A stretch of 64,000 nt of DNA from Octopus vulgaris (Eukaryota): NCBI GenBank assembly GCA_951406725.2, contig OX597816.1:106888001-106952000 (forward strand). The letters run 5' to 3'. The notes below the pieces were generated by a model. That model made no database searches and was not told where the DNA came from. It was given only the letters and a program-made list of their open reading frames with translations. The number at the start of each line of letters is the position of its first letter. Within the stretch, counting starts at the first letter, position 1. This document shows, one piece after another, positions 58,161 to 62,036 of this stretch. The position numbers and the translations under genes were made by a program.

Positions 58161-58292
58161 TCCTCTGACGATGCCTTTGGTTATTTAAACTGACAAATAT
58201 AATGTTTAATGGCTAGGACTATATTACAATGGCATCTATGGGCAATTTAAGTTGGATTGTCTCATGACCATAGGCTGAAACAGCTGTAAGGA
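58161..58292 (+). ncRNA. Type I hammerhead with ~80-nt loop on stem II; stem III CAGCTG
   Basis: tcct CTGACGA t-gcctttggtta...tgaccataggc-t GAAA CAGCTG TA agga. Confidence 0.8.
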
Positions 58293-58465
58293 GCAGTTTA
58301 TTTGTATTATTTTTATTTTATTATTAATTTACATATTGATGTATTTTTTTTTGTTCGATTTTCATGTTCCTATTTGTATAATTAATAAATAATGTGAAAT
58401 TGTAATATCCGTAAGTTGATGATCGAAATTAATATGTTCCTCCATTTTCTTATTTGTATTATGAA

Positions 58466-58836
58466 CTAGCAGTATCGCCCGGCGTTGCTCGGGTTTGTAA
58501 GGGAAATAACTATAAAGCATTTTTAGAGAGTTATAGCCAAAATATAGCAAAAAAATTGGAAAAAAATGAGGGTAAATTTTTTTTGAGAGTTAAAAGGGTC
58601 GAGTTGCGTCCCCTAGACAGTCTGTGGTTTGTGTTTCTGATTCTCGACCCCATGTCGAATTTATCGATTTTTTTCAGAACTGGGGAACTTTTCAAAATTT
58701 TCGCTGCGTTAGTTTTGAATTATGACATTGGGCTATGAGTGTGTCAAGTTTCATCAGAATCGGTTGAAAGCCGTGGTCAGGGTGAGGGTACACACAGACA
58801 CACACACAGACAAACTGCCGTTTATATATAGAGAGA
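58466..58836 (-). mobile_element. Non-autonomous Helitron
   Basis: Minus 5' TCTCTCTATATATAAA, 3' hairpin cccgagcaacgccggg then CTAG; inserted between A and T. Confidence 0.9.
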
Positions 58837-59147
58837 TTAACGGTAAAATATTTTTTACCTTCACCCATTCAATACAATAAATGATTTAATTGCATTGCAA
58901 TTATAGGAATTTATGTATATAGTATTTGGGTACCTTACCAGCAGTATATTGGATAACTGATATCCCATAGTGGGTTACTTTCATAACCCCTATCTTACTT
59001 TGTACTATATATATATATATATATATATATATATGAATGCGTGGAGAGTACAGCATGAGAGGGTTATATACATTTATCTAACACATTCTGATTGAATCTT
59101 CCATGCGTCAGCATGTACTTTCATGCGACATTGTAACTTTTGATTTA

Positions 59148-59242
59148 ATCCTTGGCCTGAAGAGTAGCCGGTGGTATACGCCTCGCATGGATTTTTACCA
59201 CTTTTGACGTTCCGCCCATTATGAAACAAATGTAGCCTGGAT
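59148..59242 (+). ncRNA. Type I hammerhead with extended stem II
   Basis: atccttggc CTGAAGA gtagccggtgg...ccgcccattat GAAA caaatg TA gcctggat. Confidence 0.7.
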
Positions 59243-60599
59243 CTTACCTATTCCTTTCCGTAACTCTTGTATATAACTTTCAAACACATTTACCCAATGT
59301 ACGACCGTATCAATAAATAAATTCTATAATTAAATTACAATCACTCCTAAATACGTAACTAAATAAGGGTATTTATTCCAGACCCAAGAATTCTTGGTAT
59401 ATTTCATTGACGAAGGCAAAGTGGTTTTATGCAGAGCCAGAATCCCAGGGTCTGCAATTTTCCAATTTTCACTAGTTTATTTATCTATTTGTCATCTCAC
59501 CTTGTGCTGTATTGAATACATGTGGTTTTAGAGTAAGGTTTTGATTGTTATTTCAAGCATGGTGATATCTCTTATATACCCTTATTTATACTTTTAATAA
59601 TTATAACATATAAGGTCTTTTCTTCCCATGCTGCCACTTGATTTGATCGTTATTCAAATAGCAACCTTTTCTTTATATATATATATATATATATATATAT
59701 ATATGTATATATATGTATATATATATATATATATATATATACATATATATATGTATATATATGTATATATATATATATATATATGCACATACATACATTC
59801 ATACACACACATACATACATACATACATACATACATACATACATACATACATATATATATATATATATATATATATATATATATATATATATATATATAT
59901 ATATATATATATATATATATATCATGGACTGTCCCGTCGTTCGGCAATTTCATGCCGAACAACTATACAATTGATTTGTTTATAGTGATCAAATGTTTCC
60001 GTTCACATAAGTTGACTTCTTCCAGCAAATCGACATTATTAGTACAGGTGCATTGTGTAACACATGTCAGGTGACGAAATGATTGCAGAGCAGCGTGAAA
60101 TGATGTGCTTTGCTCAAGAACAAAACGCAACAGCTTGTTTGCGAATGTAAATAAGAAGAAAAAGAAAATGGTGACTGGAAAGTTAATAATTGTTCATTAT
60201 TGACAGAAAATTAATCATCTTCACTTACAGCTGTTTCAATTAATATCCGGTAAATAATAGGTAAATATTTAATTTATATTTATATGACCTGAGGATAATA
60301 CCTTCAAAGGGAAAAAGTTATACCCTTGGATATTATATATGTGTTTATGGATTCATTATAGCAGCCTGAATGATACGGTTTATGATTTTTATCGTTATAT
60401 TTGGGCAAGGGGGTTACAGGTTGATTGAAGTAACTAGAATTAGAAGAATAAATGAATAAATTACATAGAGATGATAGATATAATTTAAATATGAATAAGG
60501 TAAGTTTATAGTTAATAAAAGAATGGAATATTTGTTTATAAAGTATAAATAAAGTTATGAAATATTTGTATATACGTAAGTACGTACGTATACATATAT

Positions 60600-60805
60600 A
60601 TGACCGCGTGTGTACCGTTGGCGATTTTTTTCCTTCGTCTTCCCTTCTCTGGATCTTTCCTTTTCCTATGTTTCTGACGAAGAGCTCCGCTCGAAACGTT
60701 AAACCCTCCTTCTTCTCTTCCTTCCTGAGTGTCCAATAATACTATATTTGTTACACGTCCTCGCGTTCTTGTGTTTTCTCTTTGTGTTCTCATGTTTGGA
60801 TTAAC
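60600..60805 (+). mobile_element. ~200-bp non-coding HHR-bearing element ending in (TA)n (retrozyme or solo PLE terminal repeat)
   Basis: Three copies in window (6271, 12236, 60600); shared end ggattaa abutting a microsatellite. Confidence 0.8.
60670..60704 (+). ncRNA. Ultra-minimal 35-nt hammerhead
   Basis: gttt CTGACGA a-gagc-tcc-gctc GAAA cg TT aaac; stem III reduced to the ACGT palindrome. Confidence 0.8.
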
Positions 60806-60884
60806 TATATATATATATATATATATATATATATATATATATATATATATATATATATATATATATATATATATATATATATAA

Positions 60885-62036
60885 TATAAATAAATGAATG
60901 GAGTTGAACGACGAATTAACAAAATTCCTTTATTCTCGACATATGTTTCGAAGGCTGCATATTCCTAATTTCGAAGGAATAAGGGGTGCATTATGCCGCC
61001 TTCTCATCAGGAAAAACAAGGAACTTATGTCAGCATCAAGATGAACAAACACTTTTAGATGACTGCCCACACGGAGCCCATATCGATAATGTGTGTTTCT
61101 TTAAAATATTCCGTTATAAGCAGTGAGGTTAAAAATGGTTGAATGTAGAAGATTCTAGAAGGTTCAAGGGTTCAAACAAGGTTGGAGGAGAGAGGTCTAA
61201 GAATAGGAAGGTGACAGGGTGCAAATCATATGAATGGTGATTTGTTGTTGTTTTCTTTTGTGATTGAGTGCCTATGTGTGTGTATGTATATAACTGCATT
61301 CATGTCTATGTGTGTGCGTGATTGTGTGTGTGGTTGGGTAGATGCCAAAAAAAACAGTGGTGAAGTGACAGGTTCGTGTCTGTGTGTTTGATTGTGCTTA
61401 CGATAGAGAGAGGGAAAGAGAGAGAGGAGGGCGAGGTAGAGAGACAAAGGTAAAACATACCTCAATGGGTTGGGTAGTAGTCCTTTATGAGTATAATAAT
61501 TGACTATGGGGGTGATGTATAAATGGAACTAAATTATTAAAATTCAAGGAGGTTATCTATATTAATCATCATTCATATGAGTGAAAGGTGTGTTTCTGCC
61601 AGTGCATGCACCTATAGGATTTTTCGACTATTGTATTAATTAAAGGGACTTTGGCGAACAATATATGGAAAAGTTCGGAATTACAGACGCCACAAAATTT
61701 TCTGCCCTTATCAAACGGAAAGGATACAGACAATATGGACCATTCCAGCTTGAAAGTTGTATTGCTATCCTTAAGACGCCAAACTAATTTACTTAGTCCT
61801 GTGCTTTGTTGTTTTCTCTTATCTCGGAAAGTTGAATAATGATTGGAGATTCTCTGGGCTAATTTAGAAGTAGTTGCCCCAATGTAGAAGAAGACATCGG
61901 TACCGGAAGAAATTTTACACTGGTAAATGGAATTTCTAATTTTGGAATTGCTGGATAAGAACTTTAATCTGTTAGGGTTTACTTCCGAGACTAAGACGGA
62001 GTTTTTATTGTTATGATTGCTGTTAATATTATTGCT
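60885..62036 (-). mobile_element. Second 5'-truncated PLE of the 41-kb family; open GIY-YIG frame 62036-61569 with no ATG
   Basis: SNNINSNHNNKNSVLVSEVNPNRLKFLSSNSKIRNSIYQCKISSGTDVFFYIGATTSKLAQRISNHYSTF...CGVCNSE...CMHWQKHTFHSYE*. Confidence 0.9.
60932..61016 (-). ncRNA. PLE type I hammerhead, stem III CATATG
   Basis: ttttc CTGATGA gaaggcggcata...tatgcagccttc GAAA CATATG TC gagaa. Confidence 0.9.

Follow-up and report, generated by a model that had tools for sequence, protein, structure and literature searches.

Positions 58161–61016 of the Octopus vulgaris stretch analysed here (64,000 nt in all; hereafter the window) hold four hammerhead motifs whose stem III is, or nearly is, a short palindrome. 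This raises the question of what such a cluster represents and whether, as a sequence-only reading had proposed, the palindromes form a code by which each family pairs only with itself. The four are minimal type I hammerheads with CUGANGA cores at 58165, 59157 and 60674 on the forward strand and at 61010 on the reverse, accompanied by GAAA and UH (H17 at 58288, 59234, 60700 and 60938, respectively), and the type I order of these elements together with helices I and II is present at all four sites. The first motif (58161..58292, + strand) has a 4-bp helix I (UCCU/AGGA), core 58165-58171, a branched helix II domain of 105 nt, GAAA at 58277-58280 and the palindrome CAGCUG, with A58288 as predicted cleavage position. 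The second (59148..59242, + strand; core 59157-59163; predicted cleavage position A59234), an old, decayed copy with ~80% identity to its relatives, forms a helix I of 3 bp (GGC/GCC) plus 4 bp (ATCC/GGAT) after an internal loop and has CAAATG as stem III. The third is ultra-minimal (60670..60704, + strand; core 60674-60680), with 4 bp each in helix I (GUUU/AAAC) and helix II, the palindrome ACGU and predicted cleavage position U60700, while the fourth (60933..61015, − strand; core 61010-61004) combines a 5-bp helix I (UUUUC/GAGAA), a 54-nt helix II domain, the palindrome CAUAUG and predicted cleavage position C60938. Seven related copies in the lineage of this last motif showed covariation, with 96.9% of cells paired and double changes at 4 pairs. 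The palindrome is perfect in three of the four copies; the 59157 copy departs by one substitution from a family norm that is itself perfect.

No alignable sequence is common to the four elements, the best pairwise match being 19 nt, which bears out the earlier claim of four unrelated hammerheads within 3 kb. Each is a lone copy within the window rather than part of a tandem array, and the copies are unequal in age (80% to 100% identity to their respective relatives). An Rfam search of the window gave no match at gathering score and, in E-value mode, only microsatellite-driven matches and no hammerhead family among the 150 of 249 matches listed; microsatellites also dominated a general repeat search. 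A strict hammerhead descriptor, which sets no palindrome requirement and undercounts (18 matches in genome stretches sampled at even spacing, 1.2 Mb in total), found 5 motifs in the window, whereas 200 dinucleotide shuffles averaged 0.025 (maximum 1), ruling out chance; 59157 is missing from these five because its helix I has 3 bp. Genome-wide, three patterns returned 17,309, 40,103 and 21,988 matches compared with 1,542, 1,613 and 1,410 for reversed-pattern controls, a 31-nt pattern for the 60674 family returned 12,624 (control, 0). The genome holds ~100,000 such motifs. The window is relatively dense, with 8 pattern matches where 2.7 were expected from the 51 found in 1.2 Mb of evenly spaced stretches (P about 0.007).

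We then asked which elements carry the motifs. Judged by motifs, the 61010 hammerhead forms the 3′ end of a Penelope element that is Hydra-like, and the 60674 hammerhead lies in the pseudo-LTR of one that is Neptune-like, with Nematis as the alternative clade. The former element (60874..62037, − strand) is young, 5′-truncated and contains a GIY-YIG endonuclease frame at 61569-62084 (Pfam E 0.0009, below gathering score). A copy 96% identical to it carries an RT and EN frame of 833 aa, in which Pfam matched no family, and its candidate relatives number 1,477 at the DNA and 17,231 at the protein level. The lineage has a DKT motif, a C-terminal GIY-YIG domain without CCHH but with CxxC and CxH, and (TA)n insertion; we term it ‘Hydra-like’ because the CxCX5C linker is absent (two long frames) and RWL stands in place of RWK (locus L273). 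Contigs of four RNA runs, chosen by guess, cover the 61010 family, although such contigs do not show RNA ends. The Neptune-like portion comprises the last 217 nt of a pseudo-LTR (60590..60806, + strand) ending in (TA)n. An intact relative (G000:C3:63452055-63459700; L318) has a 1009-aa RT and GIY-YIG ORF between two ~1.5-kb direct repeats that are 99.9% alike, each with a 60674-type motif, placing the two hammerheads 6,168 bp apart. The 1009-aa frame has DKG plus, at its C-terminus, a GIY-YIG domain with a CX2-5CxxC linker and CCHH (both histidines read by eye), and its sole Pfam match was a weak one to RVT_1 (E 0.0013). The two elements end tail to tail on the same (TA)n tract (60806..60883).

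The 58165 motif sits in a 5′-truncated repeat (58076..59005, + strand) of PLE-like layout that ends at (TA)n 59006-59033, is split by an unrelated repeat at 58466-58835 and has 572 family candidates at 90-95% identity. The 59157 motif sits in a truncated repeat (59081..59275, + strand) whose relatives include partial copies in inverted orientation and have 3′ ends at (TA)n. Neither family showed a linked RT or endonuclease ORF within 1.5 kb (19 + 19 loci), but both show truncation, inversion and (TA)n ends of the PLE-like kind. Family members share 3′ ends at (TA)n, 5′ ends vary and inverted partial copies occur; a tally of solo, inverted and tandem copies allowed one mismatch, may include other families and was not relied on. 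(TA)5 lies within 250 nt downstream of 25 of 50 motif matches, compared with 19% of random positions. These ends, the ORF links and the TA proximity support the earlier view of a diverse, TA-associated population of PLE-type dimer hammerheads.

The same reading had counted about ten hammerheads in the window. Nine of the ten sites do belong to hammerhead-bearing families; the tenth, 46252, occurs once in the genome and its core is broken, and three of the nine show damage. The motifs at 24461 and 41012 are intact: the former (24461..24505, + strand) has a 6-bp helix I and stem III CUUGGG, which is CTCGAG or CCCGGG in relatives, while the latter (41013..41094, − strand; core 41089; CAUAUG) is a second hammerhead of the 61010 lineage, 3′ of a GIY-YIG-type frame at 41371-42354. 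Damage takes different forms. At the 4663 site (4664..4715, − strand; CGUACG), truncation removed the 5′ strand of helix I and left 2 bp; the family of this site forms tandem arrays with a 545-560 bp unit, including ten units of about 545 bp at locus L274. The 12252 site (12252..12284, − strand) belongs to the 60674 family; it has C at core position 4, as do most members of that family, and a deletion immediately 3′ of the cleavage site that removed the 3′ strand of helix I. The 1205 site (1205..1254, − strand) is a decayed member of an old family with AAAA replacing GAAA and the 7-nt near-palindrome CTTTAAG. Finally, 46252 is probably a chance match, since it reads GGAA instead of GAAA and has no relative in the genome.

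Are the palindromes family-specific? Within families they are often conserved, CAGCTG being kept in 17 of 20 copies of the 58165 family and CATATG in 18 of 25 of the 59157 family. When the inner four bases were left free, 69 of the first 100 matches were perfect palindromes and 14 more were so with G-U (hand count), and the figure for an even genome sample was 32 of 37. However, CATATG is also the palindrome of the unrelated 61010/41089 family, and CGTACG, CAGCTG, CGATCG and ACGT each occur in several families, CGTACG in at least five with differing helices I and II. Just 10 palindromes cover the 21 sequence families with a perfect one, so that 17 family pairs have one in common; for the 18 families with 6-nt palindromes there are 16 sharing pairs compared with a random mean of 9.5 (draw from 16) and a possible minimum of 2. 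The family tables behind these figures hold 172 motifs, many of them obtained by targeted searching, in 29 clusters of which 16 have a single member. Palindromes also differ inside families, as with CATG beside CATATG in two near-full-length copies. Family specificity was therefore not borne out, and a pairing code fails as stated: sharing between unrelated families, at more than the random level, makes a family-specific code unlikely.

A weaker form of the idea, in which a family can pair mostly just with itself, is nevertheless predicted, via helix I rather than the palindrome. The proposal that stem III is too short to fold stably alone held up, monomer hairpins having predicted energies of +2.4 to +2.9 kcal/mol and being impossible for ACGT, whereas homodimer stem III is predicted at −1.7 to −11.1 kcal/mol for intact palindromes and mismatched palindromes incur a penalty of 4-12 kcal/mol in the predicted duplex. 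Whole-sequence MFE folds lacked the hammerhead fold for most monomers, as expected for the dimer type, and were not used as evidence. Helix I of at least 3 bp forms within 40 of 50 pattern-only matches compared with 11% of 2,262 cross pairs, and in both directions it is possible for no two of the four neighbouring motifs. The same holds at family level, where 3 bp both ways is possible in 7 of 210 pairs and 14 of the 17 same-palindrome pairs are unable to form it; the 61010 and 41089 motifs, by comparison, are mutually cross-compatible. These models suggest that dimer exclusivity derives mainly from helix I, which likewise pairs in trans.

With good confidence, we take the four motifs to be minimal type I hammerheads in lone, truncated 3′ ends of four unrelated families, of which two are shown to be PLEs and the others are likely PLEs. 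Such motifs are predicted to cut only when dimerised in tandem parent transcripts, and the four copies are likely inert. A Penelope-like element would be copied from its 3′ end into (TA)n tracts, the targets described for the Hydra clade (PMC8557442), so that the hammerhead, 60-360 nt from that end, would be the part most often left behind. An intact tandem copy, the arrangement shown for the 60674 family, would place two identical hammerheads on one transcript; folding energies and published work suggest that their palindromes would pair with each other while the helix I strands swap, creating two active cores. Minimal hammerheads of pseudo-LTRs, with palindromic helix III, are indeed inactive as monomers and weakly active as dimers (PMC4209133). 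Selection would maintain a self-complementary stem III but be indifferent to which palindrome provides it, the sequence following descent and drift. Differences in helix I, themselves a by-product of divergence, would prevent most cross-pairing between families. None of the four copies has a same-family partner nearby on the same strand and none is predicted to pair with another, so they would not cleave.

That the cluster is instead a functional unit, or its motifs chance matches in low-complexity DNA, is hardly credible. Four motifs within 2.85 kb are rare at any one place (P about 8e-6) and the 46252 site does resemble chance, but about 32 such runs are expected genome-wide under a uniform model, even without clustering, and the shuffles exclude chance. 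Moreover, the copies are of unlike age, one is interrupted by another repeat and one lies on the opposite strand. In the motif-rich stretch, long TA tracts number 14 within 3.7 kb, compared with an average of 6.7 per 10 kb; across the sample, motif and TA-tract counts per 10 kb showed no correlation (Spearman 0.13, P 0.16). Given ~100,000 genomic motifs, the cluster is a rich but expected spot adjoining (TA)n tracts. It also seems very unlikely that selection has shaped the palindromes, by themselves or together with helix I, into an address code against cross-dimerising of co-existing families. Compensatory switches between related subfamilies speak for such a code, one short-helix-II lineage that includes the 24467 copy showing CTCGAG, CCCGGG, CTGCAG and CCATGG (by eye) and a second CAATTG, CGATTG and CGATCG, as do the few family pairs with compatible helices I and the cost of palindrome mismatch. 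Yet palindromes are shared above, not below, random, and CGTACG serves at least five families; CAGCTG families also tend to have their inner helix I (..CT/AG..) in common, so that close relatives remain cross-compatible, as are 61010 and 41089. Changes from CGATCG to CAATTG and from CACGTG to CATATG could equally be products of symmetric CpG decay, and tandem copies would supply a partner in cis, in which case no code would be needed.

In thousands of copies, among them a young intact element and some tandem arrays, the conserved U4 of the core is replaced by C. The 60674 family has C4 in 75 of its first 100 matches (hand count), and genome-wide the C4 pattern gave 6,713 matches (control, 1,638), whereas an A6G transition pattern gave 2,380 (control, 1,020). 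C4 occurs in 360-bp tandem arrays and in the intact Neptune-like copy, whose hammerhead may work poorly or need protein because it combines C4 with a helix I mismatch. Such cores, together with the considerably lower in vitro activity of U4C (PMC3088659) and a PLE hammerhead whose cleavage requires its protein and without which insertion still proceeds in vitro (PMC11167929), lend some plausibility to the possibility, which we hold to be the less likely one, that in many families the fold is maintained as a signal for protein binding or folding, with cleavage slow, protein-assisted or dispensable. On the other hand, most motifs keep U4 (35 of 51 in an even sample) and the remaining core, and a U4C viroid variant keeps enough activity in vivo (PMC3088659). 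This possibility is compatible with truncated copies of dimer-type hammerheads and alters just the weight placed on cleavage. We give little credence to a two-part address of helix I plus palindrome, selected against cross-cleaving of sister families within a natural library of ~100,000 dimer hammerheads that belong to dozens of families existing side by side, with several expanding lineages on a non-canonical C4 core made workable by the element's protein. A selected pairing code, if true, would be new for retroelements; present data favour descent and drift.

These observations add one more animal genome, with Hydra-like and Neptune-like families, to a described class, in an unusually large and varied set. 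Largely non-subscription literature on octopus, cephalopod and heterodimer hammerheads yielded no paper on the hammerheads of this genome or a pairing code; the work of Lunse, Weinberg and Breaker on minimal hammerheads (cited in PMC6765202) may already treat palindrome diversity and core variants. Large, diverse populations are already known, with 126,247 type I motifs in Axolotl and over 6,000 in 16 families in Acropora (PMC7229834; bioRxiv 10.64898/2026.07.22.740005). The field asks if cleavage by PLE hammerheads occurs in vivo and why a partner is required. As test material, this genome offers an intact element whose two pseudo-LTRs are nearly identical, tandem arrays of homogeneous units, relatives with naturally swapped palindromes, and C4 cores in the thousands.

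The octopus motifs resemble the minimal hammerheads of metazoan PLE pseudo-LTRs (Cervera and de la Pena 2014, PMC4209133): both have type I topology with a short helix I and a short palindromic helix III/loop 3, both fall into many consensus families per genome, and both occur mostly as single truncated copies, with inverted pairs and AU-rich flanks. They differ in that most octopus motifs have 6-nt palindromes and helix II domains as long as 40-105 nt, whereas the published alignment (supplementary file 2, part 2) is dominated by 2-nt palindromes; C4 is common, and the copy number is roughly tenfold the 9,000 reported for Xenopus. The 61010/41089 lineage matches Hydra clade C-terminal GIY-YIG PLEs (Craig et al. 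2021, PMC8557442) in DKT, GIY-YIG with CxxC and CxH but no CCHH, 3′ hammerhead and (TA)n targets, whereas it has RWL rather than RWK and an Asn-rich stretch instead of the CxCX5C linker. The 60674 family shares with the Neptune clade (PMC8557442) DKG, PKIHK, the CX2-5CxxC linker, a CCHH-type GIY-YIG domain, hammerhead pseudo-LTRs and a (TA)n end, but has a ~1.5-kb pseudo-LTR, a long (CA)-rich 3′ region and a majority C4 core. Finally, the 4663 family and two others are like non-LTR retrozymes (PMC7229834; bioRxiv 10.64898/2026.07.22.740005) in that they form non-coding arrays of tandem units (360, 545-560 and 594 bp), each with a single hammerhead, unlike the four lone motifs, and some of these units exceed 170-400 nt.

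The four hammerheads that the sequence-only reading placed at 58161-61016 are located there, as type I minimal motifs with core starts at 58165, 59157, 60674 (+) and 61010 (−) and predicted cleavage positions at 58288, 59234, 60700 and 60938, respectively, and sequence comparison found no relation among the four elements, which had been called unrelated. A strict descriptor (core, 4 bp of helix I and 4 bp of helix II, with no palindrome demanded) returned five motifs in the window (24467, 58165, 60674, 61010 and 41089) against a mean of 0.025 over 200 shuffles, and stem III was self-complementary in all five. 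Helix I of the 59157 motif has 3 bp adjoining the core, an internal loop and then 4 more bp. The suggestion of about ten hammerheads in the window held in part: the sites at 24461 and 41012 are intact, whereas the other four extra sites are damaged, that at 4663 being 5′-truncated by a cut running through helix I, that at 12252 missing the 3′ strand of helix I, that at 1205 being a decayed copy from an old family (seven relatives inspected) and that at 46252 having a broken core and no relative in the genome. The window (G+C content 36%) abounds in simple repeats, (TA)n among them; no part of its 64 kb was recognised as a host gene, and its long frames are pieces of mobile elements or simple repeats.

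Three exact patterns matched the 2.8-Gb assembly (227 contigs) 17,309, 40,103 and 21,988 times, compared with 1,542, 1,613 and 1,410 matches for the reversed controls, the patterns overlapping in that 5 of the first 100 matches to the third belong to a family also counted under the first. An even sample of the genome (10 kb at each of 120 regularly spaced places, 1.2 Mb in all) held 31 matches to the same patterns and 51 once C4 (C at core position 4) and a longer helix II were permitted, where five shuffles gave 2–4, implying roughly 110,000 motifs genome-wide. The window contains eight pattern matches versus 2.7 expected, and a uniform model predicts ∼32 runs of four motifs within 2.85 kb across the genome. 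Long TA tracts number 14 at 57.4-61.1 kb of the window versus an average of 6.7 per 10 kb, and the proposed association with TA was borne out in the sample, with (TA)5 lying within 250 nt downstream of 25 of 50 matches versus 19% of random positions. The four-motif cluster is a landing zone rich in TA; the finding is real, belongs to a kind already described and is nothing unusual in this genome.

Stem III is indeed too short to fold alone, the monomer hairpin being predicted at +2.4 to +2.9 kcal/mol and that of ACGU being sterically impossible; between two copies, a duplex of 4 or 8 bp is predicted. When the inner four bases were unconstrained, the first 100 genome matches included 69 perfect palindromes and 14 more that were so with G-U pairing (hand count), and stem III was palindromic in 32 of 37 cases in the even sample, indicating that its palindromy is selected. 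Helix I is also kept, since its own 3′ strand pairs at least 3 bp in 40 of 50 pattern-only matches versus 11% of cross pairs. Covariation in the 61010 lineage comprises four pairs with double changes, among seven copies that are few and related. In a double hammerhead, helix I too is formed between the two copies, as follows from topology (PMC4209133, Fig. 1 legend). Pairing of two copies' palindromes would yield a dimeric hammerhead able to cleave, and tandem copies would supply the partner in cis. None of the four window motifs has a tandem partner copy and helix I can form both ways in none of the six pairs among them, so these copies are predicted to be inert.

The sequence-only reading further proposed that family-specific palindromes act as a pairing code, each family dimerising only with itself. 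The palindrome does not mark the family: CATATG is the norm of the 59157 family (18 of 25) and also of the 61010 family, to which it is unrelated and whose motif lies 1.8 kb off, and CGTACG recurs in no fewer than five families (30 loci). Clustering of 172 motifs gave 29 clusters, of which 21 have a perfect palindrome (the eight imperfect ones were excluded), and these 21 use only 10 different palindromes. Among the 18 clusters with 6-nt palindromes there are 16 sharing pairs, compared with 9.5 for a random draw (from 16) and 2 for an even spread. Probable kinship between some of the clusters would explain the sharing by descent; even then, the excess is the opposite of avoidance. Self-only pairing survives in another form, families being predicted to be mostly self-specific through helix I and not through the palindrome, since helix I can form both ways in just 3 of 17 same-palindrome family pairs and 4 of 193 others. 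It counts in favour of a code that close relatives in some lineages do swap palindromes. Drift under palindrome constraint, with CpG decay helping, can account for both the self-specificity and the swaps, however, with no code required. Literature searches combining hammerhead with octopus, cephalopod or heterodimer returned no paper on this motif set or on a pairing code.

The 60674 unit (217 nt) is the end of a pseudo-LTR, and by its sequence features the family appears Neptune-like. An intact-looking Neptune-like Penelope element at G000:C3:63452055-63459700 (L318, L322) has a frame of 1009 aa, bearing DKG, PKIHK, a CX4CxxC linker and GIY-YIG, between direct repeats of about 1.5 kb that are 99.9% alike. 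Each repeat bears a 60674-family motif, the two lying 6,168 bp apart on the same strand, and the element ends in (TA)n. Its 3′ region is long and (CA)-rich, and its hammerhead combines C4 with one helix I mismatch. At L034/L296 and L297, the N-terminal RT region of this family is fused directly to the hammerhead-bearing end; these loci are an internally deleted derivative.

Core position 4 was C in 75, U in 23 and A in 2 of the first 100 of 12,624 matches to the 60674 family (hand count). Outside this family the C4 pattern gave 6,713 matches (control 1,638), and an A6G comparison pattern 2,380 (control 1,020). C4 is found genome-wide, including at 12274-12280 in the window, in the intact Neptune-like element (G000:C3:63453424 and 63459592) and in arrays with 360-bp spacing; it is therefore fixed in several expanding lineages. 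C4 copies number thousands, at a position where U4 is normally invariant. In a viroid, PMC3088659 reports, U4C reduces activity in vitro but is sufficient in vivo; PMC11167929 describes a Poseidon hammerhead as protein-assisted, with in vitro insertion working without it. At many places on G000:C1 there recurs a family of short motifs whose core has G at position 6 (CTGGNGA ... GAAACAGTTGTC or CAATTGTC); it could represent a further variant of the core or have nothing to do with it.

Some 60 nt separate the 61010 motif from the 3′ end, which is shared, at (TA)n, by all 30 loci inspected; their 5′ ends vary, and an inverted partial copy is often present. The window copy (60874-62037) is 96% identical to one with an 833-aa frame, and further frames of 741 and 804 aa occur elsewhere. 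As in the Hydra clade (PMC8557442), the family has DKT plus a C-terminal GIY-YIG with CxxC and CxH, without CCHH; unlike that clade, it has RWL where RWK is expected and yielded no CxCX5C linker, and we therefore name it Hydra-like only. The element of the 41089 motif is related to it (77%). In the Hydra-like proteins of this genome, RT and GIY-YIG are separated by a long stretch rich in Asn, in the place of the expected Cys linker (window 41371-42354 (−); L271-L273), and in the near-full-length copies L271 and L272 the palindrome is shortened to CATG instead of CATATG.

The 58165 and 59157 families are PLE-like in layout, and no ORF was tied to either in 19 loci of each. The 58165 copy (58076-59005) ends at (TA)n and is split at 58466-58835 by another common repeat (370 bp, 17 matches in 1.2 Mb), whose ends we take to resemble those of non-autonomous rolling-circle elements; the 59157 copy is old, with ∼80% identity to relatives. 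The 4663 family forms tandem arrays, with ten ∼545-bp units at G000:C1:33100449-33105374 (L274). Further arrays, with units of 594 bp (a second hammerhead family) and 360 bp, lie at C1:10836851-10838642 (L226-L229), C1:31009481-31013486 and C1:27695239-27697071, those of 360 bp having C4 cores and being recognised purely from the spacing of pattern matches. These array families are retrozyme-like; the arrays are homogeneous and non-coding, with a single hammerhead per unit. Elsewhere in the window, a fragment at 62769-63134 (−) that contains the 2B domain of Pif1 helicase (Pfam E 4e-10) is probably a Helitron relic, and at 9808-9948 an Rfam alignment showed a perfect-looking inverted repeat of ∼45 bp on either side of a (TA)n tract.
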